IMG/VR virus record: IMGVR_UViG_3300032092_000004
Coordinates: 32,001-96,000 of that record
Direction: 5' to 3' (one strand)
From: a virus
Length of the DNA stretch: 64,000 nucleotides
Under the pieces are notes generated by a model that searched no databases, was not told the origin of the DNA, and was given only the letters and a program-made list of their open reading frames with translations. Positions within the stretch are counted from its first letter, which is position 1. Each line of letters starts with the position of its first letter. Shown here one piece after another: positions 1-51,231 of the stretch. A program made the translations under genes and the position numbers.

Positions 1-1296
1 AAAGTAAAAGCCCAAGACATTTGGAGTAAAGTTGTTGAATCTCAAATTGAAACGGGTGTTCCTTACTTATGTTCTAAAGATAACGCAAATAGAAAAACTA
101 ACCACCAAAATATTGGGGTGATTAAACAATCTAACTTGTGTAACGAGATCTATCAATATACAGATGAAGAAACTACAGCAATATGTACATTATCATCTAT
201 GGTATTGAAAAACTTTATTCAAGGGGGTAAATTTGATTTTGAACTTTTATTTAATGAGGTTAGAAAGGTTGTTAGGTCACTTAATAAAGTTGTTGATATT
301 AATAACTACTCAACTGAAAAAGGTAGAAAAGGTGGTTTAGCACAAAGAGCAATTGCAATTGGAACTCAAGGTTTGGCTGACGTATTTTATCTAATGGATT
401 ATATCTTCACATCTGACGAGGCTAAAAAATTAAATAAAGATATTTTTGAAACAATCTATTATGCATCAATCTATGAAAGTAATCAGTTGTGTATAGACGG
501 TAAATACGAACCTTACTCATTCTTCAACGGCTCACCAATGTCCAAAGGAGTATTCCAATTTGATATGTGGGGATTAGACGAAACTCAACTTTCAGGAATG
601 TGGGATTGGAACAAACTTAAAAATAGTGTTTCACAATATGGTGTATGTAATTCATTATTTACAGCACAAATGCCTGTGGCATCTTCAGCTAAGATTACAG
701 GATCATATGAAATGACAGAACCAGCTCACTCGGCTATTTTTAACAGAAGAGTTGTTGGTGGGGAAATCATGATTGTTAACAAATACTTAATTAATGATTT
801 TGAAAAGATTGGAATTTGGTCTGAAGATTTGAAAAATGAAATTATTATAAATGAAGGATCAATCCAAAATATTAATTTCAATAACTATTTGGATAGTGAA
901 GATAAAAATTACAATAAGAAAGTTAAAAGAATTGAGCATTTAATTCCTAAATATAAAACTATTTGGGAGATCTCACAAAGAGAACTTATTGATATGGCGG
1001 CAGATAGAGCACCATTTATTGATCAATCACAATCAATGAATATCTATATGGCGAACCCAACTTTATCTAAAATTACATCATCACATTTCCACTCTTGGGA
1101 AAAAGGTTTAAAAACTCTTTGTTACTATGTAAGAACAAAAGCAATCTCAACAGGTGCAAAACATTTAGCGTTAGATATGTCAAAACGTGAAAAACCTAAA
1201 GTGACTCCTGAACCACCAAAAGTTGACTACTCTAACTTGAATTTACCACCAAGACCTGAGAATTCTGATTTCGAATGTTTTGGATGTTCATCCTAA
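1..1296 (+). CDS. nrdA: Ribonucleotide reductase class Ia alpha subunit (5'-truncated by window edge)
   Basis: Frame is open from base 1 (KVKAQDIW...ETGVPY...). Catalytic SNLCNEI, AQMPVASS, FIDQSQSMN, KTLCYYVRT and C-terminal CFGCSS redox pair are present. Confidence 0.97.
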   Translation, partial: KVKAQDIWSKVVESQIETGVPYLCSKDNANRKTNHQNIGVIKQSNLCNEIYQYTDEETTAICTLSSMVLKNFIQGGKFDFELLFNEVRKVVRSLNKVVDINNYSTEKGRKGGLAQRAIAIGTQGLADVFYLMDYIFTSDEAKKLNKDIFETIYYASIYESNQLCIDGKYEPYSFFNGSPMSKGVFQFDMWGLDETQLSGMWDWNKLKNSVSQYGVCNSLFTAQMPVASSAKITGSYEMTEPAHSAIFNRRVVGGEIMIVNKYLINDFEKIGIWSEDLKNEIIINEGSIQNINFNNYLDSEDKNYNKKVKRIEHLIPKYKTIWEISQRELIDMAADRAPFIDQSQSMNIYMANPTLSKITSSHFHSWEKGLKTLCYYVRTKAISTGAKHLALDMSKREKPKVTPEPPKVDYSNLNLPPRPENSDFECFGCSS

Positions 1297-1303
1297 AATT
1301 AAG

Positions 1304-1333
1304 AATCACTACTTCGGTAGTGATTTTTTTTTT
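1304..1333 (+). terminator. Intrinsic terminator after nrdA
   Basis: AATCACTAC-TTCG-GTAGTGATT followed by a T run. Confidence 0.9.
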
Positions 1334-1354
1334 ACTTAAAAATTCTATAACTTA

Positions 1355-1362
1355 TATTTATA
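1355..1362 (+). promoter_or_regulatory. Putative late promoter TATTTATA heading the baseplate operon
   Basis: The same motif precedes many structural/head-type genes (see findings). Confidence 0.65.
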
Positions 1363-1368
1363 TATGAT

Positions 1369-1827
1369 ATGGCAAATGGTATTACATACGGTATAGGGTT
1401 TCCCTTCGTTGATTCGTTTACAGGTAGATATTTAGATGTTACTGAAACTACTGAAGCTGAGATTAGAGGTAATCTAGTACACCTACTTTTAACAAGAAGG
1501 GGTAGTAGATATTTTTTACCTGATTTTGGGACAAGATTATATGAGTACATATTTGAACCACTTGATGGTCCTACGTTTTCAGATATTGAGGCGGAGATAA
1601 GGGACACCATTAGAACATTTATGCCAAACTTACAAGTAACAAATATTGTTGTTGAACCAGCATCTGCAGGACTTGAAGATAAAGGTTTTACTGTAAATGA
1701 ATATGGTGAACGAGAATTTAAAGTTACAAACATTGCCAATTTAGAACATACGGCAAGAATCAAAATTGACTATAAAATCACTGATTCGGCATTCGAATCA
1801 CAAGATTTTGTTATATTAAATATTTAA
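1369..1827 (+). CDS. Baseplate wedge protein, gp25/GPW-like
   Basis: LLLTRRGSRYFLPDFGTRLYEYIFEP matches the gp25 signature (LLTxxGER..PxFG..L...FEP). Confidence 0.9.
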   Translation: MANGITYGIGFPFVDSFTGRYLDVTETTEAEIRGNLVHLLLTRRGSRYFLPDFGTRLYEYIFEPLDGPTFSDIEAEIRDTIRTFMPNLQVTNIVVEPASAGLEDKGFTVNEYGEREFKVTNIANLEHTARIKIDYKITDSAFESQDFVILNI

Positions 1828-1833
1828 TGATAT

Positions 1834-3675
1834 ATGGCTGAAAAAAAGATATCCTATACGGTCCGAGATTTTCAAGGAGTAAGATCTGAGTTAATAAATT
1901 TCACAAGAACTTACTATCCTGATTTAGTTCAGAACTTTAACGATGCTGGTATTTTTTCAGTTATGTTAGATCTTAACGCTGCGGTAACTGATAACTTAAA
2001 TTATCAAATTGACAGAAGTATCCAAGAAACTGTATTACAATTTGCTCAGCAAAAAAACTCAGTTTATAACATTGCAAGAACATACGGTCTTAAAGTACCA
2101 GGTCAAAGACCATCAGTTGCTTTAGTTGATTTTTCAATAACTGTTCCTGCTTTTGGGGATAGAGAAGATATAAGATATTGTGGTATCTTAAGAAGAGGAT
2201 CTTTGGTTAATGGTGCAGGACAACCTTTTGAAACTGTTTATGACATTGATTTTGCATCACCAATTAACGCTGAAGGATCACCAAACAGATTAAAAATACC
2301 AAACTTTGATTCAAGTGGTAAGTTAATAAATTATACTATTGTTAAAAGGGAAGTTGTCGTAAACGGTGTTACAAAAGTGTTTAAAAGAACAATTACAGCT
2401 AATGATGTAAAACCATATTTAGAATTATTCCTTCCTGAAAAAAATATATTAGGAATAACTAGCGTTTTATTAAAACCTGGAACACAATACTCTACAGTCC
2501 CAAACCCACAAGATTTTTTAAGTTTAGGGCCTGAAAGATGGTATGAAGTTGATGCGTTAGTTCAGGATAGAATTTTTGTTGAAGACCCAACTAAAGTTTC
2601 AGATCAACCTGGGATTAAAGTTGGAAGATACATCACAACATCAAATAAATTTATTTCTGAATACACACCACAAGGTTTTTGTAAAATGACTTTTGGTGGT
2701 GGTAACATTTCAGCCGAAGAACAATTAAGAGAATTTGCTCGTGACGGGAAAGGATTTGATTTAAGTAGATATACTAACAATTATGCGATGGGTGCGGCAT
2801 TAACACCAAACACAACTTTATTCGTTCAATATAGAATAGGTGGTGGTTTGGCTAGTAATGTTGGTCTTAATACGATCAATCAAATTGGTACAGTTTCATT
2901 CGCAGTTAATGGACCTTCTGATTCTGTTAATAGAAGTGTTATTAATAGTCTTCAGTGTAATAACGTAACTGCGGCAATTGGTGGGGCTAATTTACCAACA
3001 ACGGAAGACGTTAGAAACATGGTTTCATTTAACTTTGCCGCTCAGAACAGAGCCGTAACAGTTAATGACTACAATTCATTAATAAGAACAATGCCATCTC
3101 AATACGGAGCACCTGCAAAAGTTGCGATTACTGAAGAAAATAATAAAATTAGAATTAAAATGTTGTCATACGATACAAATGGTAGTTTATCTAATGTTGT
3201 ATCGAATACTTTAAAACAAAACATTGCAAATTATTTATCTAACTTTAGAATGATAAATGATTATATTTCTGTTGAAGCGGCAGAAACTATCGATTTATCG
3301 GTTACCGTTGATGTGGTATTAGATAATAGTCAAAATCAAGGTGCAATCATTTCAAAAACAATCGAAATCATTAGTAATTTCTTCAATCCATTGGTTATAC
3401 AGTTAGGTCAAAACGTAAATATATCAGAACTTAGAAGATTAATACAAGCTGAAAATGGGATAGTTAGTATCTCTAATGTTTCTTTCTTCAACCAAGTGGG
3501 AGGTCAATATTCTTCGGCACAAACTTCTATGCCTTATTCAGATCCTGTAACAAGACAAATACAACCTACGGCAGATACTCTTTTCGCAACTCCAACACAA
3601 ATCTATCAAATTAGATTCCCAAGCAAAGACATTAATGTGAGAGTATTGAACTTGAAATCCGTTAATTTCTCATAG
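1834..3675 (+). CDS. Baseplate wedge protein, T4 gp6/Baseplate J-like
   Basis: N-terminal RDFQGVRSEL, IARTYG, YRIGGG..NVG and AQNRAVTVNDY motifs; follows gp25. Confidence 0.88.
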   Translation: MAEKKISYTVRDFQGVRSELINFTRTYYPDLVQNFNDAGIFSVMLDLNAAVTDNLNYQIDRSIQETVLQFAQQKNSVYNIARTYGLKVPGQRPSVALVDFSITVPAFGDREDIRYCGILRRGSLVNGAGQPFETVYDIDFASPINAEGSPNRLKIPNFDSSGKLINYTIVKREVVVNGVTKVFKRTITANDVKPYLELFLPEKNILGITSVLLKPGTQYSTVPNPQDFLSLGPERWYEVDALVQDRIFVEDPTKVSDQPGIKVGRYITTSNKFISEYTPQGFCKMTFGGGNISAEEQLREFARDGKGFDLSRYTNNYAMGAALTPNTTLFVQYRIGGGLASNVGLNTINQIGTVSFAVNGPSDSVNRSVINSLQCNNVTAAIGGANLPTTEDVRNMVSFNFAAQNRAVTVNDYNSLIRTMPSQYGAPAKVAITEENNKIRIKMLSYDTNGSLSNVVSNTLKQNIANYLSNFRMINDYISVEAAETIDLSVTVDVVLDNSQNQGAIISKTIEIISNFFNPLVIQLGQNVNISELRRLIQAENGIVSISNVSFFNQVGGQYSSAQTSMPYSDPVTRQIQPTADTLFATPTQIYQIRFPSKDINVRVLNLKSVNFS

Positions 3676-19535: not shown

Positions 19536-22199
19536 ATGGCATTATTAACGGATCAAATACAAGCAACTGGAGTTTCTTTAACGGACTTAATTCACATAGT
19601 CATCACCGGTGACACATCTCAAAATCCTGCGGGATCTTCTTATAAAGCAACAATCCAACAAGTGGCTCGAGTAATATCAGGTACAACAGGCACTAGTGGT
19701 ACTTCCGGATCAAGGGGTTCGTCAGGGACAAGTGGTCAAAGTGGGATTGGGTTATTTTTACCATTATCAGGAGGTACGGTTACGGGTAATACAATATTTA
19801 ATGCGGGTTTAAGTGCAATAACAATATCGGCAACAACTTATCAAAACTTACCAAGTGATGTAATAATTATTGACTCAACACAGATCCAATCAGGATTTAC
19901 AGGTGGAGTCTTATTTCAAAGTTCAGCAAGTACGGTAAGTCAAACTACTGGTTTTACTTGGAATAATACAAATAAAAGATTGGGAATTGGGATTAACTCC
20001 CCTCTCTATGATTTAGATGTCAACGGGTCTATCTATCAAAGAACCGGAGAATTATTAATTACATCCACAGGTGGTGTCAACAAAGAAGGACCATTTATTG
20101 CATCAAGTGGTGGTGACGATTTAATCTCCGACAGAAAAATCCAATTAGGAATTTCAGACAATTCAACTGTACCTGTCGGTATTAATATGTTTGTAACTAA
20201 CAATTCATTCCCACCAAGTTACATGAACTTTAGAGTAAACAATGCAGATCTAGTTAGAATGTCTGGTAGTTCTGTTGAAATTAGCGGTCTTACATATACA
20301 AGTGGTATAACCTCAACATCTAAAATCACATTTCCACAGATAACAATTAATAGTGGGTATACAGTTACTGATAATGACTATATGGTTGACGTTACAGGTG
20401 GTACTTTTACTGTAAACTTACCAAGTGCTGTAGGAAGAAAGGGTAGATTATTAGTTATTAAAAATAATGGTGGAGGTGCGGTTACCGTAGATCCATTTGG
20501 TAGTGAAACCATCGATGGAAAATTATTCGTAATTTTAGGAGAAACTAACTCAATACAATTATCAAGTAATGGAACAGAATGGGTTGCTTTGGGGTATAAT
20601 ATCTCAACAGTAAACTCATCAACGGGTGTTTTTGAATTTACAGGTATTACAACCGCATCCCCAACAACATTTAATGTTGCTCCTGTAAAAGGATGGATAG
20701 TAGACGACACAACAAATCCTTTATCACCACAATTATATTATGTTGTGTATACAGGTGGTACAAATACCGCAACTTATGTTACAACAAGTACCGAAACTTG
20801 GATTTATTTAACGAGCGGAGGAACAATTAGTCAATCAAATATTCCTTTAACGGAACAAGAAAGAAGACAAAATATATTTTTAGGTAAATTGGGTCACGCT
20901 AATAAGACATCAATTATTAATTCTTTTTCTCAACCTGACTTTGTTTTATCTCCATTATCACAACTTCGTGATATGTTTACACCAATTAATTTAATTAACG
21001 GTGGAATAACCCCATCACCTAACGGTGTAAATTTAAGTTTTAACACAAGTGCGGAATACCTATATGGTTTAGGTATAAATTTCGCAAACGACATATTAAG
21101 TCCTGATTCGTTATATGTTTCAGGAACCGCTCCTTGTACGTTCCAATATAGAACACAAACAGGTGGAACCGCATCAAACACAACATTTATTGACCCAACA
21201 AAATATGATGTTGGTGGTACTGTAACTTCTATACCAGGAACTAAAGCAACTAACCAAAGAATTTATTTGGTACAAAACGGTGTTTTTAGAGTTCAGTACG
21301 GACAAACAGTTTATTCAACACTAACTCAAGCAGTTGCGGGTATTTCAACAGAACAGTATGTTGAGTTTTCAAACTTTCAAACTAACGGTATTTTAATTGG
21401 TATTTTATCAGTTTTAAGCTCATGTACTGATTTAAGTGATACTTCTAAAGCATTATTTTTCCAAGCCTCAAAATTTGGTGAATCAACAGGGGCCGCTGGT
21501 GGTACACCAACAACAAACTTACAACAAGCATACAACAACTCATCAGAACCTGAAATTTTAACTAACTCAACATTAGGAGCATTTTCAATTAAAAATGGTA
21601 CGGGTAATCCTGACATCTCAACAAATTTGTTTGAAGGTATTGGGTCTTCAGGTGTTTTAACTTCGTCAATCACTGCGAGAGGTGTTATCACGGGGACTAG
21701 CATTAGTACAAATGGTACTATTAGTGGTGGTGCGGTAACAGGTACAACAATGTTGGCATCTACGTTCAATCTTGCTGGATCACAAATAGAATCGGCGTGG
21801 GAATCATATAGTGTATCTTGGACATCGTCAGGTACTAATCCAGTAATTGGTAATGGAACTATAGAAGGTTGGTATAAAGTAATTGGTAAAACATGTTTTG
21901 TTAGAGGAAATATTGTGATGGGGTCAACAACAACATTTGGTACGGGAGAATGGTATGTATCGATGCCGGTTACTGCTGTAAATGCTGATGCCATATTAAT
22001 GACGGTAACTTTATTAGATAATGGTAGTGCTTGGTATAATGCCACAATGGCCGGAGCAAGAGCAGGATTTAACACTAAAGCCCCTATGCAATATGTAAAT
22101 ATTTTAAACGGTACTGCAAATGATGTAAATGCAACTCAACCATTTACTTGGACAACTAGTGATAGATTTGTATGGAACGGAAGTTATGAAATTGCATAG
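19536..22199 (+). CDS. Tail fibre protein
   Basis: GTSGTSGS low-complexity neck, LPLSGGTVTG, RLGIG...P...LDVNG and TVNLP..GR.L.IKN fibre modules; C-terminal G.Y.VIGKTC receptor-binding-like domain. Confidence 0.75.
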   Translation: MALLTDQIQATGVSLTDLIHIVITGDTSQNPAGSSYKATIQQVARVISGTTGTSGTSGSRGSSGTSGQSGIGLFLPLSGGTVTGNTIFNAGLSAITISATTYQNLPSDVIIIDSTQIQSGFTGGVLFQSSASTVSQTTGFTWNNTNKRLGIGINSPLYDLDVNGSIYQRTGELLITSTGGVNKEGPFIASSGGDDLISDRKIQLGISDNSTVPVGINMFVTNNSFPPSYMNFRVNNADLVRMSGSSVEISGLTYTSGITSTSKITFPQITINSGYTVTDNDYMVDVTGGTFTVNLPSAVGRKGRLLVIKNNGGGAVTVDPFGSETIDGKLFVILGETNSIQLSSNGTEWVALGYNISTVNSSTGVFEFTGITTASPTTFNVAPVKGWIVDDTTNPLSPQLYYVVYTGGTNTATYVTTSTETWIYLTSGGTISQSNIPLTEQERRQNIFLGKLGHANKTSIINSFSQPDFVLSPLSQLRDMFTPINLINGGITPSPNGVNLSFNTSAEYLYGLGINFANDILSPDSLYVSGTAPCTFQYRTQTGGTASNTTFIDPTKYDVGGTVTSIPGTKATNQRIYLVQNGVFRVQYGQTVYSTLTQAVAGISTEQYVEFSNFQTNGILIGILSVLSSCTDLSDTSKALFFQASKFGESTGAAGGTPTTNLQQAYNNSSEPEILTNSTLGAFSIKNGTGNPDISTNLFEGIGSSGVLTSSITARGVITGTSISTNGTISGGAVTGTTMLASTFNLAGSQIESAWESYSVSWTSSGTNPVIGNGTIEGWYKVIGKTCFVRGNIVMGSTTTFGTGEWYVSMPVTAVNADAILMTVTLLDNGSAWYNATMAGARAGFNTKAPMQYVNILNGTANDVNATQPFTWTTSDRFVWNGSYEIA

Positions 22200-22253: not shown

Positions 22254-23234
22254 ATGGAAAACATATTATTTGTCTCAGCACAACCTGACGTTCCCTACTT
22301 TATATGGCAAATAAAATTGTATGTTCACAATTTTATCGAAAAAGGAATTAACCCAAATCAAATACATGTGGTTTTAGGGTTAGTTAATAATGTGAACACA
22401 CCATCTAAAGAATCAGAACAACTTAAAGAGTTAGGTGTTAATGTTCATTACTTTGTTGATGAAAGATCTAAAAAACATTACATACCAAGTATTAAACCAT
22501 ACCTCATCTCAAAGTGGATCCAATCAAATACTGATTATGGAAAATTATTTTTTCTTCACGATGCTGATATTATTTTTAAAGAACTACCAAGTTTTAATCG
22601 GTTGTTAGACGATGAGGTTAGTTATCTATCTGATACGATAGGTTATATCGGATACAACTATATTATGGATTGTTGTGAGAGATATGAACAACAACACCCC
22701 AATTCAGATAAAGGACAACTTATAAGTGAAATGGCAGATGTAATTGGTGTTGATGTTGAAAAAATTAAACTCAATCAAGAAAATTCAGGTGGAGGACAAT
22801 ACCTAATTAAAAATACAAATTGTGAATTGTGGGATAAAATCTATAGAGACTCCACAAATATGTATAATAAAATGTTGGATTACCAAAAAAGATTCCCAAT
22901 AAATTCAGGTCAAATACAATTTTGGACCGCAGAGATGTGGTCATTATTATGGAATTTATGGTTGTATGGATTTAAAACTAAAGTAACTGAAGAACTTGAT
23001 TTTTCTTGGGCGACAGACACCATAGAAACTTATGAAAAAAAACCAATACTTCATATGGCTGGTGTAACAGATAACCTTAAAACTACAAAATTTTATAAAG
23101 GTGATTACATTAATATAGACCCAATTGTTAAGTTGAGAGATAACCCCAATCATTTTGATTACATAGATAAAAATAGTTCGACAATAAAATATATCGATAA
23201 TATGAAATCTTACATTCAAAAATACAACATATGA
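22254..23234 (+). CDS. GT-A glycosyltransferase resembling peptidyl-serine galactosyltransferase/HPAT (GT96/GT95)
   Basis: YFIWQ...HNF, YIPSIKP....W, LHDADIIF (DxD) and WTAEMW motifs. Confidence 0.7.
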   Translation: MENILFVSAQPDVPYFIWQIKLYVHNFIEKGINPNQIHVVLGLVNNVNTPSKESEQLKELGVNVHYFVDERSKKHYIPSIKPYLISKWIQSNTDYGKLFFLHDADIIFKELPSFNRLLDDEVSYLSDTIGYIGYNYIMDCCERYEQQHPNSDKGQLISEMADVIGVDVEKIKLNQENSGGGQYLIKNTNCELWDKIYRDSTNMYNKMLDYQKRFPINSGQIQFWTAEMWSLLWNLWLYGFKTKVTEELDFSWATDTIETYEKKPILHMAGVTDNLKTTKFYKGDYINIDPIVKLRDNPNHFDYIDKNSSTIKYIDNMKSYIQKYNI

Positions 23235-23251
23235 TTATTTATTGTTAATAG

Positions 23252-25327
23252 ATGGTAGAAAATTGTTATATATTATATTCTTGTGACGGAAGTTACAAAC
23301 CGATCATTTCAAACCTTAGTGGGTTAAGCGCTTATTCAACGTCATACATTTCTGTAAATTCTATAGATTCAGTAACAATAGATGAAACTTGTTTTTATGT
23401 GTTAAGTTTAGGTGAAATAGACTGTACACCAACAAACGAAATAACAATTTCAACAGGGATAACATGCAATTGTCAATGTTATTGTTATTTTATAAGATCT
23501 GTGACTCAAACAACTGATGTTACATATGTTAATTGTAATGATGAAATTATTGTTGATACTATCCAAGAGGGATTAACTTACAATATTTGTAGTAAAGTTT
23601 ATCCACAGTTTGACACTCAAGTGCAAATACCAATTAAATTAACTGACATTTGTGTTGATAACCAATGTCCACCAACAATCCCAACTGTAAAACCAACAAA
23701 CGAATGTGATGTTATTACAATATTCCCTATGGGGGTTACTTGTATAACACAACAACCTTCATCAGAAAGAGATTTTGATGGAGCGGTTGAATTAGTTGTA
23801 ACAGGAGGAACGCCACCTTACACTATATTTTGGGAAGTTGGAAGTTTTGCACCAGCACTAACTAATCTTGGAGTTGGTGAATATTCAGCATCTGTTACGG
23901 ATTATTATGGTGATTTTTCGGCATTTACAACTTGTGTTTTAACTGCGGAGACTGTAACATATTCAGGTATGTGTTTTGTATTAACAGGTGTAGTTGAAGA
24001 TCAGTTAGTATATATTAATTCAGAAGTAAAAGGGTTTAAAAATACAAAACCATACTTTGAAATACAATATGGTGTAAATCTTTTGGGTTACGTTTTTTGG
24101 GACCCAAGTTCAGAAAAATGGTTTTTTTGTCAAACGCTAGATTGTCAATTATCCCCATATAACACACTTTTATTACCTGATGGATTATATCCTACAGGAA
24201 CGACAGGTGATTGGCAAGTTATTTCAGACTCACCATATTTAATTGTTGAATCAACAATTGGCAATTGCTCACCACCGGTAATACCTAAAGAAGATTATAC
24301 ACTCTGTGCAACAATAGTTTCAAGGTCAACAAAACCTGGAATCCCAACTATGGCCTCACAAGTAGAACTTGATCCAAGTATTAATATAAATGGAGAACCT
24401 AGTTGGTCTTCATCAACAGGTCAATATGTTGTGTATTGGGATAGTGGATCGACACCATCACAATGGGTTATGACAGGATTTACTAGTCCATCAACATTAG
24501 TTACAAATAATGACCCATCATATCCACCAGTAAGTAATTGGCAAGTTTATGGTGGATATGATATATACAGTGTTGATATTGCTCAAGGATTATGTACTGA
24601 TTCGTACATTGTAGTGGTTTCTGCGGTAGTTAACGACGCTTTATGTGGAAATAATGGTAGTATTACTATTAGTGCTTCTGGAGGAGATGCACCGTACCAA
24701 TACTCAATAGATGGAGGATTATCATATCAACCATCACCAATATTCAGTAATGTTCTTCCAGGGACTTATATAGTATTTGCTAAAGACGTAAATACAACAA
24801 TAGGTTCATTTGGACCTGTGGTGGTTAATAACATCCCAACCACCATTTATAACGTAACGATGAACGTAAATTACAATAATAATACTTTTACGTTAACTGC
24901 ACCATCTTTACCTGTTGGATCTACATTAACTGTTGATGTTGTTATGTCGTCAATATTTAACTATTACCCACAAAGTTTGAGCCCAATACCTTCATATAAT
25001 AATTTTACAACTATTAGTGGTGTTGGACTTATGACAAATACAAATACAACAGTTAATACTTATGCATTAGGTGGACCTTGTAGTGTTCCTGGACCACTAA
25101 ACAATACACAAATTAGTAAAACCTATTTGAACACCTTAACATTAACTAGTGGTCAAGTTGTTACAGGTAGTACTACAAATAGTATCATCAACTTTCCTGC
25201 ATTTGAGTGTTCAAACGCAGTTGGATATTATCAATTATCTATTACAAACGCAATAATAAATAACTGTCAATGTTGTGAGACAAACCTAATTAATTCGGTT
25301 CCACCTGTACCACAATCAGTTTTATAA
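23252..25327 (+). CDS. Cys-rich virion protein with SprB-like repeats
   Basis: DGAVELVVTGGTPPYTIFW, NNGSITISASGGDAPYQYSIDGG; many Cys; preceded by TATTTAT. Confidence 0.65.
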   Translation: MVENCYILYSCDGSYKPIISNLSGLSAYSTSYISVNSIDSVTIDETCFYVLSLGEIDCTPTNEITISTGITCNCQCYCYFIRSVTQTTDVTYVNCNDEIIVDTIQEGLTYNICSKVYPQFDTQVQIPIKLTDICVDNQCPPTIPTVKPTNECDVITIFPMGVTCITQQPSSERDFDGAVELVVTGGTPPYTIFWEVGSFAPALTNLGVGEYSASVTDYYGDFSAFTTCVLTAETVTYSGMCFVLTGVVEDQLVYINSEVKGFKNTKPYFEIQYGVNLLGYVFWDPSSEKWFFCQTLDCQLSPYNTLLLPDGLYPTGTTGDWQVISDSPYLIVESTIGNCSPPVIPKEDYTLCATIVSRSTKPGIPTMASQVELDPSININGEPSWSSSTGQYVVYWDSGSTPSQWVMTGFTSPSTLVTNNDPSYPPVSNWQVYGGYDIYSVDIAQGLCTDSYIVVVSAVVNDALCGNNGSITISASGGDAPYQYSIDGGLSYQPSPIFSNVLPGTYIVFAKDVNTTIGSFGPVVVNNIPTTIYNVTMNVNYNNNTFTLTAPSLPVGSTLTVDVVMSSIFNYYPQSLSPIPSYNNFTTISGVGLMTNTNTTVNTYALGGPCSVPGPLNNTQISKTYLNTLTLTSGQVVTGSTTNSIINFPAFECSNAVGYYQLSITNAIINNCQCCETNLINSVPPVPQSVL

Positions 25328-25353
25328 ATTGAATATAAGAATATTTACAATAA

Positions 25354-27858
25354 ATGGCTTACATAATTAAAAATACATCTGGTTTAGTTAACACTCGTGT
25401 TACAGATACGGGTAGACAAAAAATGTCCGAAGGCAACTTTAATATTTTTTACTTTGCGGTAGGGGATAGTGAAGTTTCATATAACGAGTTACCATCTACT
25501 TACAATCAGACTAATACCGTTGTTTTAGAACCACAATTCAATGCACAAAACAGTTCAGGTGTTCCTGAATCAAATAGACAGTACATTAAATATCCATATT
25601 TAGTTGATGAAGGACAAACAAATATTTATGGTATACCTTTTATGGATTCAGGTATTGATTCTGTTTACAATAGAGCTGCTATGAGAGGGTTCTTCACAGG
25701 AAACACAACCGCTTCTACTGTAGATTGGAAAGCGTTAGTTAATAACACATATGTCATTACACCAAATTATGTGGTTAACATGTCCACTTTGAACGGAACA
25801 AACCAAATAAGTGTACAAAGAATGGACTGTAATGTTCAAAATGATAATACACCAAATGTTGGAGATTTTATAACAATATATTATGATGGAAGAGCAGAGA
25901 CCGATTGTTCTTGTAGTAATTTTCCTACACCAACTCCGACACCTTCGTTATACAGTACACCAACTCCGACACCCACACCAACAAGTACACTTTCAATACC
26001 TTGTGCTTCTCCAACACCAACACCTTCACCAACACACACACCATGTTTAACACCAACACCAAGTGCTCAATGTCCATTACCACCACCACCTGATTGTTTA
26101 AAAGATGTAGTAAGTTGTTTTTCAATTTTAACTTATAGAATTGTTGAAGTTTGTGGTAGTGTTTTAACGTTAGACAGAGATACACCTGATTTTACAAATT
26201 TATCAATTGATTGTTGGGCGAGAACATTAATTTATCCACCACAAATGGTTCCTTTATATGACAGTTTTACACCTGAACCACATTGGAATAAAAGTGTAAT
26301 CGACTTTGAATCAGTTTGTGATACTGATCAGTTTGATGTTAAAATATGGAATATGAATATTCCTTGGACCGAGAGTCCTGCTGGTTTGGCATCCGCTCAA
26401 TTCCAAGACTACACAAAATTTGGTTCTATTAACTACATAGGACAAAAAGAATATTTTGGATATAATTCATCTGATGGTCAAACATCTACTGATGATGTAT
26501 ATTACTACAATTCATTCGGCGAAAAAATTGTAGTAGCACCTGAAGAACAAAAGGCAATTGCAATTATCCACTATACTAATCAAACTATCGATTTCTTTTA
26601 TGGTGAAAAATTTGCGTTAGAACCTTACGACACACAAAACCCTGATAACACTCAAGGTCAAGCGAGAAACTTTAAGTTACATATGCCAACAATAATGTGG
26701 CATAAAAATCCTGAATGTTGTTTTGGGCAAACTTTTTGGGTGGATCCTCCAGGATTTGACAATCAAAATTTATTCCAAGTTCAATATACAAAGTCTAAAA
26801 TTTCACAACAAATGAATCAACCTGGACTTAGATATTATAATCTTTGGGATACATTTGCACAACCAAACGGTCTACCAAGTAGGGTAGGTAAAGTTTACCC
26901 TGACTCAAAACTAATTGTTATTGATGATGAAGAATTAGTAGCTGCTCTATCATATAAATCAAATAGAAACTGGACTTTACCGGCACCACAAGTATCTTTA
27001 ATTACACCAAACACATGTGGGACTTCAAATACTACAGGTGTTTTAACAGGAGGAGGAGAGACACTTTGGGTAACTTATAGACTATCAAACACAAACGCAT
27101 TTACAAATTCATTACATAGTAATTATTACACAAGTGTTGTTGGAACTGAGAATGTCTGTTCACCTGAAACACCTAAGAATGTTGCAGTTAGATTTGGTGG
27201 AGATTTCCCTTGTTTAGTACAACCAGGTTTCTCACCAACAACTACAACGACTACATTCAATCCTGTTACCACATCAACAACTACAATTAATCCACCATAC
27301 ACAACAACTACAACAACTCAGTGTCCTGTTTGTACTGTTCCTGCTGGATTCTATGCACAACAGTTCCAAGTACTGGCTCAAAAAACATTATCGGGGGTGA
27401 GACCTGATCCGGCTCAATGGAGATTAATTGATTTTACAAGTCAAATTGAACAATACTTCATTAATGGTTATGTAACCCAAGAATCTTTAACCGCAACAAC
27501 TTTTGTTGTAACTGCGGAAAATTATGGAAGTGCACCAATATACAATCTAAACGACTATATAAGTTTGGTTCCTAATGGTGCGACAGGACAACAATTGAAT
27601 TTTGGTGATGAGTACTATTTCTACGGTAATTTAGAAACCGACATCCAAGCCACATTATATGAGATGAAATATAAAATTAACTTAAGTGATAATGAATTCT
27701 TAGTTTCTCAAAACCCAACTTGGACCCAAGGAACCCCATCTTATGTTACCGAAATTGCACTTTTAGATGAAAATAAAGATGTTTTAGTTATGTCTAAAAT
27801 GCAATCACCAATATTAAGACAAGGAATCCAACAGTACGTTATTAAATTAGATTTCTAA
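25354..27858 (+). CDS. Tail-fibre/baseplate adapter-type protein with (PT)n and poly-Thr tracts
   Basis: N-terminal VTDTGRQKM..FAVGDSE and C-terminal VTEIALLDENKDVLVMSK (DUF3751-like halves). Confidence 0.6.
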   Translation: MAYIIKNTSGLVNTRVTDTGRQKMSEGNFNIFYFAVGDSEVSYNELPSTYNQTNTVVLEPQFNAQNSSGVPESNRQYIKYPYLVDEGQTNIYGIPFMDSGIDSVYNRAAMRGFFTGNTTASTVDWKALVNNTYVITPNYVVNMSTLNGTNQISVQRMDCNVQNDNTPNVGDFITIYYDGRAETDCSCSNFPTPTPTPSLYSTPTPTPTPTSTLSIPCASPTPTPSPTHTPCLTPTPSAQCPLPPPPDCLKDVVSCFSILTYRIVEVCGSVLTLDRDTPDFTNLSIDCWARTLIYPPQMVPLYDSFTPEPHWNKSVIDFESVCDTDQFDVKIWNMNIPWTESPAGLASAQFQDYTKFGSINYIGQKEYFGYNSSDGQTSTDDVYYYNSFGEKIVVAPEEQKAIAIIHYTNQTIDFFYGEKFALEPYDTQNPDNTQGQARNFKLHMPTIMWHKNPECCFGQTFWVDPPGFDNQNLFQVQYTKSKISQQMNQPGLRYYNLWDTFAQPNGLPSRVGKVYPDSKLIVIDDEELVAALSYKSNRNWTLPAPQVSLITPNTCGTSNTTGVLTGGGETLWVTYRLSNTNAFTNSLHSNYYTSVVGTENVCSPETPKNVAVRFGGDFPCLVQPGFSPTTTTTTFNPVTTSTTTINPPYTTTTTTQCPVCTVPAGFYAQQFQVLAQKTLSGVRPDPAQWRLIDFTSQIEQYFINGYVTQESLTATTFVVTAENYGSAPIYNLNDYISLVPNGATGQQLNFGDEYYFYGNLETDIQATLYEMKYKINLSDNEFLVSQNPTWTQGTPSYVTEIALLDENKDVLVMSKMQSPILRQGIQQYVIKLDF
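25921..26092 (+). repeat. Pro/Thr (PT)n coding low-complexity tract
   Basis: ACACCA-like repeats encoding PTPTPTPS...PTPTPSPTHTP. Confidence 0.85.
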
Positions 27859-27912
27859 CAAAACTACAATTTTTATCTTCATAGTTTATAATATAAATAA
27901 AATAATAGCTTT

Positions 27913-28521
27913 ATGGCAAAAAATTTAAAAAACTCCCCCAAAGTTTTGGGTCTTGATATTTCCACAAAAACCATAGGGTGGGCATTGTTTGATATCAAAA
28001 CACAAGAACTACTTGAATTAACTCATATCTCACCAAGACCAAAAATGGAGAAAGATGAGAATGATAAACTAAAAGAGTTATTATTAAAATCAGAAATATT
28101 TGCTGAAAAACTTAAACAATATAAAGATTTAGGGATTGTTAGAATTATTATAGAGGAACCACTTTTAAATTCTAATAACATTTATACCATACAAACACTA
28201 TTAAGATTTAATAGTTTTGTATTTAAAGAAATCTATAATATAATGGGAATAGTTCCTGAATTTATATCGACATATAACTCAAGAAAATTTGCCTTTCCTG
28301 AGTTAGTCCAAGAAAACGATAAAAAGAAATTTGTGTTATTTGGTGGATTACCAAAAGACGTTGATAAAAAGTTGATAATTTGGGAAAAGGTTGCAAAAAG
28401 AGAACCACAGATTACTTGGCATTATACAAAAAACAATACATTAAAGAAAGAGAATTTTGATCAAACAGATGCGTACACTTGTGTTTTAGGATTTATGAGA
28501 TCAAAAGAAATTTGGAAATAA
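27913..28521 (+). CDS. ruvC: RuvC-like Holliday junction resolvase
   Basis: VLGLDISTKTIGW, IIIEEP and DQTDA acidic catalytic motifs. Confidence 0.8.
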   Translation: MAKNLKNSPKVLGLDISTKTIGWALFDIKTQELLELTHISPRPKMEKDENDKLKELLLKSEIFAEKLKQYKDLGIVRIIIEEPLLNSNNIYTIQTLLRFNSFVFKEIYNIMGIVPEFISTYNSRKFAFPELVQENDKKKFVLFGGLPKDVDKKLIIWEKVAKREPQITWHYTKNNTLKKENFDQTDAYTCVLGFMRSKEIWK

Positions 28522-28545
28522 TATCGTTTATATAACCGATAATTG

Positions 28546-28578
28546 AAAATATCGTCTTTTTAGACGATATTTTTTTTT
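28546..28578. terminator. Bidirectional terminator between convergent genes
   Basis: AAAATATCGTCT-TTTT-AGACGATATTTT. Confidence 0.85.
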
Positions 28579-28579
28579 A

Positions 28580-29848
28580 TTAACAAATTACACCTGAATC
28601 TGTTGCTGTAAAGTTTGGAGAAGAAGATGTTGGAATTGTGATAGAACAAATGTAATCGGATGTGTAACCACCTAACCCACCTAAAGATATCGTTCCATCA
28701 CACTCATAGTAATTATATTTAATTTGACTAACACTATTGTTTTCAACATACCATTTTGTAAGGATACAAGGACTTGATGTTGGAGTTGGTGTTGGTGTTT
28801 GTGTTGGTGAAGGAGTTGGTGTTTGTGTTAAATTAGGAAGACAATCTAAACACGCACCATCTATTCTTGAACCAACTTCAAAAGTTAACGTAATGTCATC
28901 CACACCACTTATGTTTTCAAATAAACCTTCATAAACAACACAACAACCTTGACCATTAATAATTGCGTTATATACGTAACCTTCTTTTGGACTTGTGTTT
29001 CCTGAAACTAATATTAAATCTGAAGAGAAATAATCAAAACCAGTAAAGCAATCTTTAAATTTCTTACTATTAGCACATTGTAATATTTCATTAAATGTGT
29101 TAAATATAACTTCACCACTAAAATTACAAGGTCTTGTTATTTGTGGTGTAGGTGTTGGGGTTGGTGTCATTGTTGGTGTCGGAGAATATGATACCGTAAT
29201 CGCTGACGCACTTATAAAAGATCCACCACATATATTTGTTGATGAAGGTGTTGGAGTTGGTGTAGGTGTTTGAGTTGGTGTTGCCGATATTGAAGGGGAA
29301 GGGGTGACTAAACAATCAAAAATTGCGGTGAAATCAAATGTTGCACACGGATTAACAGTTGTGGTAGTTGTAACACAAATTCCTGTATATGCGACAGTGT
29401 CGTCAAAATCAGGACAATCTGACGTACTTCCAAATGGACCAAACTGATCACATGGGCCACCTAATGTTTGAGACAAACACCATCTTGTTTCACCTGTTGA
29501 GTAAAACATAAAATATCCTGTGGTTTGTCCCGTAAAATAAGATTGACCCAGATATCTTCCTCCTGCTAATTGGTATGTGTCATCATAATTTGTGTCATTC
29601 TCAACACAAAAAAACTGAGGACATGTACAACCTGAAATACCGGTAATAGTTCCTGAAACAACATTATATACATTAATACCATTAGAATAATAAGATGTTA
29701 ATGCTGGTGTTCCAGTACATCCTGAGTTTAAATAAACTACATAACCTATTGTTAATCCGCTACCATAAAGTGTGGTACTCAAAGAACCACCACACGAAAT
29801 ATAAGGATCCGAAGCAGAGGCAAATAAACCTAAATTACTACAAGCCAT
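28580..29848 (-). CDS. Cys-rich virion-like protein with three (PT)n tracts
   Basis: TPTQTPTPTPTPS repeats; high Cys; composition resembles the tail genes. Confidence 0.65.
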   Translation of the reverse strand: MACSNLGLFASASDPYISCGGSLSTTLYGSGLTIGYVVYLNSGCTGTPALTSYYSNGINVYNVVSGTITGISGCTCPQFFCVENDTNYDDTYQLAGGRYLGQSYFTGQTTGYFMFYSTGETRWCLSQTLGGPCDQFGPFGSTSDCPDFDDTVAYTGICVTTTTTVNPCATFDFTAIFDCLVTPSPSISATPTQTPTPTPTPSSTNICGGSFISASAITVSYSPTPTMTPTPTPTPQITRPCNFSGEVIFNTFNEILQCANSKKFKDCFTGFDYFSSDLILVSGNTSPKEGYVYNAIINGQGCCVVYEGLFENISGVDDITLTFEVGSRIDGACLDCLPNLTQTPTPSPTQTPTPTPTSSPCILTKWYVENNSVSQIKYNYYECDGTISLGGLGGYTSDYICSITIPTSSSPNFTATDSGVIC

Positions 29849-50556: not shown

Positions 50557-51231
50557 ATGAATAGAAGATTAATAATTAATGAAGAAGAAAAAAGAAGAAT
50601 TTTAAATCTTCATGAAAGTAGAAGATCTAAAGAATTAGGTTTTTTATTTGAAGCCGATAATGATCAAGTAGACGGTGTTTACAACAATGACAAAGATTAC
50701 GACTACAAAAAAGAAGGAGACAATTACTTCTTCAAATTGAAGGAAACCCCTGCCAGTCCTAAGGCTCAGGCATATAAAAAACAAGGGAAATTTGCAGATT
50801 GGACAGCAGCGACAGGGGATGCAAAAGATGCTATCGCAAAATTACCATTCTTAGCCAATTTAACCGCATTCCAAGGGCCAGGTGATGTTGACGGAAGTGA
50901 TGAGGCGTTTGGCGAACCACAAACCGCACCTACAACATCTGCAAATACCGCATCAGTCACAACATCGGCAGCAACACCTACCGCTTCAACAACACCCGCA
51001 GCTTCAACAACACCAACAACTACGTCAAAAAACCCTGATGTTTTAGCAGACTTAAAAACAGCATCACAAATCAGACAAGAATTTAGACAAGGTAAAAGAG
51101 ATAAAAACAAAGCGACAAGACAATACAATCAAATGGTTAATAAATATAACAAATTAAAAAGTAAAATGAGTCCACAAGATAATTCTGCTTATCTACAAGC
51201 AATTAACCAATTAAAACAACAAATTGGATAA
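50557..51231 (+). CDS. Hypothetical protein with INEEEKRRILNLHE leader and Thr/Ala/Pro tract
   Basis: 224 aa. Confidence 0.6.
   Translation: MNRRLIINEEEKRRILNLHESRRSKELGFLFEADNDQVDGVYNNDKDYDYKKEGDNYFFKLKETPASPKAQAYKKQGKFADWTAATGDAKDAIAKLPFLANLTAFQGPGDVDGSDEAFGEPQTAPTTSANTASVTTSAATPTASTTPAASTTPTTTSKNPDVLADLKTASQIRQEFRQGKRDKNKATRQYNQMVNKYNKLKSKMSPQDNSAYLQAINQLKQQIG

Follow-up and report, generated by a model that had tools for sequence, protein, structure and literature searches.

What is a glycosyltransferase doing in the tail module of a jumbo phage? The question is raised by a 64,000-nucleotide (nt) stretch of viral DNA, hereafter the window, which comprises bases 32001–96000 of the 153-kb record IMGVR_UViG_3300032092_000004 (CheckV completeness 49%; G+C of the window ∼32%). 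An open reading frame (ORF) at 22254–23234 (+ strand) encodes a 326-amino-acid (aa) enzyme, and proteins with (PT)n or poly-Thr tracts are encoded downstream of it. The original prediction held that the enzyme belongs with the plant peptidyl-serine alpha-galactosyltransferases (GT96, SGT1/SERGT1) and hydroxyproline (Hyp) O-arabinosyltransferases (GT95, HPAT), and that the phage uses it to O-glycosylate its own tail linkers. The second part survives as the best reading: judged from sequence comparisons, the enzyme probably glycosylates Thr tracts of virion proteins, and enzyme and tracts do co-occur. The plant-family identity is not supported by profile searches, and the likelier acceptor is Thr, not Ser or Hyp.

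The protein is a glycosyltransferase, as predicted: it combines a GT-A fold with a conserved DxD motif. The four motifs from which that prediction was made (YFIWQ..YVHNF, YIPSIKP....W, LHDADIIF and WTAEMW) are all present exactly as described. The enzyme matches phrog_4417 over its full length (E 7e-67; residues 6–319 on profile positions 3–290 of 293), a family with neither an assigned function nor a Pfam or NCBIfam model. Searches with the 326-aa sequence returned no Pfam family at E 1 or better, no NCBIfam match and no solved structure in the PDB at E 0.1 or better. Homologs are nevertheless numerous: a database clustered at 90% yields 1219, and clustering at 50% leaves 836 representatives, 310 of them with E 1e-30 or better. 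The AlphaFold model (predicted local distance difference test score, pLDDT, 97; 56-sequence alignment) is a single Rossmann-like alpha/beta/alpha domain, which Foldseek and an independent VIA search agree in placing in the GT-A fold. The DxD motif (HDAD, residues 102–105) sits between strands 98–101 and 106–108; D105 is invariant and D103 is present in at least 90% of the 56 sequences, both are invariant across 83 fused forms, and H267 and K282 are conserved across the family in the same manner.

The closest solved folds are retaining GT8-type enzymes (glycogenin, LgtC, the Skp1 alpha-galactosyltransferase and GlyE of the pneumococcal serine-rich-repeat pathway), with WbbM and UGGT, also retaining enzymes, among the top matches. 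The window enzyme differs from the GT8-type enzymes in having only 9–13% identity to them, a template modelling (TM) score of only 0.4–0.5 and extra helical elements, and the Pfam GT8 profile (PF01501) does not score on it. The model is consistent with a soluble, metal-dependent GT-A nucleotide-sugar glycosyltransferase that most resembles the retaining GT8-type enzymes; because the nearest folds are retaining, the enzyme is probably retaining too. Best structural hits to lipopolysaccharide or GT8 enzymes had been proposed as an outcome that would speak against virion glycosylation. Such hits were obtained (glycogenin, LgtC, GlyE), but they do not discriminate, since none of the fold matches is named as GT95 or GT96 and several of the top ones act on proteins or protein-bound glycans; given the lack of a match so named, the GT8-type matches neither confirm nor exclude a plant link.

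The tracts themselves are where they were said to be, in the genes at 25354–27858 (+) and 28580–29848 (−). The first encodes a Cys-rich protein of 834 aa with two Thr/Pro tracts, at residues 186–237 (about nt 25909–26064) and 623–658 (about nt 27220–27327); the second encodes a Cys-rich protein of 422 aa with three (TP)n tracts, at residues 181–207 (nt ∼29228–29308), 218–240 (∼29129–29197) and 338–364 (∼28757–28837). Both are candidate acceptors, and neither matches a PHROG of known function or any Pfam, NCBIfam, PDB or cultured-phage entry. A tract census of the 153-kb record confines (PT)n-type tracts to three or four genes. The tail sheath (1116 aa; record positions 68–3418, outside the window), matched by phrog_23 on its C-terminal part (E 1.9e-54), has two (PT)n tracts at residues 289–328, inside a large insert; of the tract-bearing proteins of this phage, it alone is shown to belong to the virion. 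A possible further acceptor is a 224-aa protein at 50557–51231 (+), which has a 27-residue Thr/Ala/Ser/Pro tract and no PHROG or NCBIfam match.

Structure models depict the tracts as disordered linkers joining folded parts. Both tracts of the 834-aa protein are kept in place in orthologs of 44–97% identity. In the closest relative, L025, whose enzyme is 94% identical, the ortholog of the three-tract protein (L025:16333–17583 (−), 417 aa) has poly-Thr in place of (TP)n at the same three positions, a swap that points to Thr content as the conserved property. The tracts change rapidly in sequence and hold their position and Thr content.

The two tract-bearing proteins, together with the SprB-repeat protein encoded just before them (window 23252–29848), are also unusually rich in Cys, often directly beside the tracts. 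Such flanking Cys residues suggest disulfide-stabilised domains joined by linkers.

The pairing of enzyme and tracts extends well beyond this phage. In 77 of 80 related contigs with enzymes 59–94% identical, (PT)n or poly-Thr genes lie no more than 10 kb from that of the enzyme, and in more distant members of the lineage the tracts are in the genes immediately flanking it, either the upstream or the downstream neighbour. Homologs of 30–36% identity are present in 77 cultured-phage records, from hosts that include Enterococcus, Lactobacillus, Staphylococcus, Lactococcus, Clostridium, Arcanobacterium and Chryseobacterium. Five of these phages are unrelated siphophages: in phiFL1A, phiCTP1 and Staphylococcus SA2 the homolog is flanked by the major tail protein gene on one side and the tail chaperone/tape-measure genes on the other, and in Lacticaseibacillus R3.3 and Enterococcus VPE25 it comes next after the major capsid gene. 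All five have a near-pure Thr tail of ∼6–27 residues at the C-terminus of the major tail protein, of the major capsid protein or of both. The tract genes directly abut the homolog in Chryseobacterium MA9V-3, in Lactobacillus Bacchae and in a metagenome contig whose enzyme is 42% identical. Poly-Thr neighbours, mostly C-terminal tails of capsid and tail-tube proteins, were thus found in 8/8 enzyme-bearing loci. By comparison, Thr tails were found in 0/6 controls that lack the enzyme (whole records searched, positive controls detected): three streptococcal prophages, SPP1, phiJL-1 and ATCC8014, which have homologous capsid/tail proteins in the same module order. The Coetzeevirus members illustrate this well, R3.3 having the enzyme plus both tails, and phiJL-1 and ATCC8014 having neither.

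Two larger samples gave the same result. The first comprised 15 further enzyme lineages on viral contigs (less than 55% identity to the window enzyme, clustered at 60%), and in 14 of these poly-Thr genes lie within 10 kb, mostly as the adjacent gene. The second comprised 80 loci chosen blind, by major-tail-protein homology alone, which proved to be 31 enzyme-positive and 49 enzyme-negative loci. A run of five Thr (Thr5) is present in 31/31 of the former versus 2/49 of the latter (Fisher p 3.7e-20, uncorrected for relatedness), and one of the two exceptions is a 5.5-kb fragment that breaks off at the expected site of the enzyme gene. Seven changes in the state of the enzyme map onto the tail-protein tree, which affords five independent contrasts: in four of these the Thr runs follow the enzyme, and in none do they move against it. 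Enzyme and Thr tracts are, in short, gained and lost together, and at least 20 enzyme lineages show the pairing; they come from phages of Bacillota, Actinomycetota and Bacteroidota as well as from uncultured viruses of marine and fresh waters. The co-occurrence that had been proposed as a test among related jumbo phages is therefore strongly positive and reaches far beyond them.

One of these phages shows an additional peculiarity. In Staphylococcus SA2 (L011:4111–4924) the major tail protein ends in a Thr run, and a small overlapping ORF, read in a different frame, specifies another 55 residues rich in Thr; the arrangement resembles a frameshift that would give the tail protein a longer-tailed version.

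Another account is that the tracts are plain, unglycosylated linkers, flexible or extended, and that the enzyme is an unrelated accessory gene of the same variable cassette. (PT)n linkers do work unmodified in many proteins, and in the window 2.7 to 6.6 kb separate the end of the enzyme gene from the tracts, whose genes have no recognised role. Against this, the pairing is found in at least 20 enzyme lineages and Thr5 in so few enzyme-negative relatives; moreover, the low-complexity regions of phages are usually enriched in residues other than Thr (PMC6821194). We consider this account very unlikely.

A number of observations nonetheless weigh against virion glycosylation. The genes that directly flank the enzyme in the window are without tracts, the nearest tract being 2.7 kb past the end of the gene, and no tract lies near the enzyme of one of the 15 further lineages (L179, a fused form from a giant-virus bin). 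Within the jumbo lineage every member has enzyme and tracts alike, which leaves no contrast to be drawn from that lineage alone. The independent contrasts by themselves give only p 0.125, being too few for significance. (PT)n linkers are common in secreted bacterial proteins that have no dedicated enzyme. Similarity of fold, finally, does not tell which acceptor is used, lipopolysaccharide being the substrate of both LgtC and WbbM.

If the virion is indeed the target, the enzyme would transfer sugar from a nucleotide sugar onto the Thr hydroxyls of poly-Thr/(PT)n tracts in phage structural proteins, and would do so in the host cytoplasm, before these proteins leave it. Candidate acceptors are the two neighbouring tract-bearing proteins plus the tail sheath. 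Other glycosyltransferases of the genome may lengthen the first sugar, and the outcome would be a particle with mucin-like, glycan-covered linkers and tails. Acceptor, donor and linkage are inferred, as is the benefit, which may lie in linkers that are stiff, shielded from proteases or antibodies, and non-sticky.

There are indeed other glycosyltransferases in the record. The enzyme had been described as a lone one, which is correct inside the tail module; elsewhere, however, the same record has six more genes of glycosyltransferase type (record 136663–144850, outside the window): one RgpF-like, one rhamnosyltransferase-like and four GT2, in a cluster interrupted by a phage lysozyme gene and a UvrC-like GIY-YIG endonuclease gene. 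This cluster could extend a glycan begun by the tail-module enzyme, or serve another target. One of its genes weakly matches (E 1.7e-4) the commonest C-terminal domain of the fused family members. Such fusions are frequent: the enzyme is single-domain in the window's phage, and 94 of 164 family representatives exceed 420 aa, that is, carry extra domains. The partners recognised by Pfam are almost all glycosyltransferases (GT2, Glyco_transf_7C, GT6, the PF11397 GlcNAc transferase, GT4, GT32, GT25 and protein O-fucosyltransferase), the others being FkbM-type and other methyltransferases, an F5/8 type C lectin domain, and radical SAM plus SPASM. A relative of 1915 aa, 64% identical to the window enzyme, also has GT4, methyltransferase and GT2 domains. 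Such partners fit an enzyme that initiates a glycan or contributes to its assembly.

The radical SAM plus SPASM fusions (P0276, P0278, P0279 and P0282; 658–660 aa, on metagenome contigs up to 299 kb) are of a type that is often peptide-modifying, and hint at a second modification of the same acceptor tracts.

The cluster may also be read differently, because RgpF, rhamnosyltransferase and GT2 genes together are typical of polysaccharide synthesis. It is possible that the acceptor of the enzyme is no protein at all: either a host envelope polysaccharide, altered so as to mask receptors or exclude superinfection, or modified phage DNA, with the tracts travelling along in some other capacity, such as glycan binding. 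That the lipopolysaccharide enzymes LgtC and WbbM are among the top fold matches fits the envelope version. T4-type DNA glucosyltransferases have the two-domain GT-B fold, not GT-A; the enzyme, by contrast, is modelled as a single GT-A domain. The DNA of VPE25, which carries the family, is glucosylated by a separate T4-like enzyme, and the authors who described it suspected a second sugar enzyme (PMC4999554). Against a non-protein acceptor, the family is present in small temperate phages (where no search was made for a hydroxymethyl-pyrimidine pathway), and neither a membrane segment nor a flippase partner is evident. Above all, both the DNA and the envelope versions leave two things unexplained: the location of the gene inside head or tail modules of unrelated phages, directly after capsid or tail-tube genes, and its gain and loss together with Thr tails on otherwise homologous proteins. 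A non-protein acceptor is on balance improbable, though individual phages may have one, and modification of virion proteins remains the preferred reading.

Could the enzyme still be a true member of the plant families, acting on Ser or Hyp in extensin-like motifs? There are several likenesses. Its four collinear motifs resemble the order in SGT1 and HPAT (Y..WQ, a K/R-P motif, DxD, W..EM), its proposed acceptors are repetitive like those of the plant and algal enzymes, which are rich in Ser and Pro, and a language-model search gave a lead, with 19 of the 30 nearest named ESM Atlas clusters carrying the HPAT family PF23452 on at least 10% of their members. Profile searches did not bear this out. 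PF23452 has no match on the 326-aa enzyme, in its own genome, in 10 phage homologs or in 10 further viral records, and reaches only sub-threshold scores in 2 of 56 family members (E 0.09 or worse). Since the Pfam model never scores, homology to GT95 or GT96 is not shown. Searches of longer proteins brought up no plant sequence at E 10 or better, only viral fusions. The plant enzymes also differ in being membrane-anchored Golgi proteins that act on Ser or Hyp, whereas the window enzyme is soluble and paired with Thr tracts.

The extensin-type acceptor fares no better. It is Thr, often pure Thr, and not Ser or Pro that is conserved in the tracts across lineages, and the likely acceptor is Thr rather than Ser or Hyp. 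A hydroxyproline route was considered and rejected: the 153-kb record, about half of the genome, contains no oxygenase of the 2-oxoglutarate-Fe(II) prolyl-4-hydroxylase type, which leaves that route without support. The enzyme is not assigned to GT95 or GT96, and we regard true membership, with a Ser or Hyp acceptor, as the least probable of the alternatives. A broader proposal is speculative and, in our estimation, rather doubtful: that phrog_4417 plus poly-Thr/(PT)n constitutes a portable 'glyco-tag' system, ranging from Gram-positive siphophages to marine jumbo myophages, with the enzyme as a viral branch of a superfamily that includes GT95 and GT96. Were this so, there would be an old evolutionary link between viral and eukaryotic O-glycosylation of the mucin/extensin type.

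The nearest precedent is in mycobacteriophages. Phage glycosyltransferases of Che8, Corndog and Myrna modify the phages' own capsid and tail-tube subunits on C-terminal extensions, in the account of Freeman et al. 2023 relayed by PMC12619734 and PMC13313380. So far as that account goes, the Firmicutes relatives of the window enzyme are alike, pairing as they do with tails on major capsid and major tail proteins, and the same combination of a phage glycosyltransferase and putative acceptor extensions on virion proteins is found here. The differences are several. The mycobacteriophage enzymes belong to another family, a tblastn search having found no mycobacteriophage homolog of the window enzyme; the hosts here are Bacillota, Bacteroidota and uncultured marine organisms, and the predicted acceptor is a simple poly-Thr/(PT)n code. 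In the window's jumbo phage, furthermore, the tracts are internal linkers of fibre-like proteins plus an insert in the sheath, not C-terminal tails. A second comparison is with A064R of chlorovirus PBCV-1 and the capsid glycosylation enzymes of giant viruses. The glycans of PBCV-1 are N-linked to atypical sequons on the capsid protein; N-linkage and eukaryotic hosts both set these systems apart. For phages of Firmicutes or Bacteroidota and for marine jumbo phages, our literature searches turned up neither this enzyme family nor poly-Thr acceptor tails, and no report of virion glycans for any phage carrying phrog_4417. Glycosylation of capsid and tail-tube C-termini is already known in mycobacteriophages.

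To date, glycans on virions have been demonstrated in actinobacteriophages and giant viruses. Should the reading hold, sugar-coated particles would be common, with carriers that include phages of Enterococcus, Staphylococcus, Lactobacillus, Lactococcus and Clostridium as well as abundant uncultured marine jumbo phages. Candidates for therapy would be affected (VPE25-like and Sextaecvirus phages, for example), with a bearing on antibody recognition and clearance in phage therapy and on the stability and stickiness of particles. There is value for annotation too, in that the family has no function in Pfam, NCBIfam or PHROG. Because the acceptor code is simple, a run of Thr, the idea is directly testable, and a Thr run might then serve as a genetically encoded tag that directs protein glycosylation in bacteria.

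The enzyme's close relatives come from metagenome contigs of up to 318 kb, marine samples among them. Gene order in the window is T4-like: a ribonucleotide reductase fragment, a gp6-like baseplate wedge gene and a series of very large proteins are followed by a tail-fibre-like gene, the enzyme gene, the SprB-repeat protein, the 834-aa protein and a RuvC-like resolvase; beyond these come the 422-aa protein on the minus strand, then primase, exonuclease, an SbcCD-like nuclease and a late sigma factor. The gene directly upstream of the enzyme (19536–22199, +) encodes the tail-fibre-like protein of 887 aa (phrog_16641, E 2.4e-21, and phrog_5668, E 1.8e-14, both tail fibre), and varies in size, the counterpart in relative L008 having 421 aa. 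The gene directly downstream (23252–25327, +) encodes the 691-aa SprB-repeat, adhesin-like protein (Pfam SprB, E 4.9e-14). The enzyme had been placed between two tail genes; this holds for the upstream, fibre-like gene, the only one of the two for which tail-protein status is shown.

The heptamer TATTTAT precedes the starts at 19536 and 23252 and those of about ten other genes, mostly structural or late-looking, by 8–25 nt, and is absent ahead of 22254, as had been observed (+ strand sites in the window: 1355, 3729, 13105, 19521, 23236, 38475, 42701, 49150, 51295 and 62691). As an enriched motif it was rejected: its 55 occurrences window-wide compare with 45 expected from shuffles, a count not above chance, and only its placement before start codons is therefore suggestive. 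TATTTAT is a candidate late-promoter element. No terminator-like hairpin was found between the enzyme gene and either the fibre gene upstream or the SprB gene downstream, which makes co-transcription with late structural genes plausible; the enzyme gene is probably co-transcribed with the fibre genes. A terminator-like hairpin is present further along, at window 28545–28574 (13-bp stem, T runs on either side), where it separates the convergent genes 27913–28521 (+) and 28580–29848 (−).

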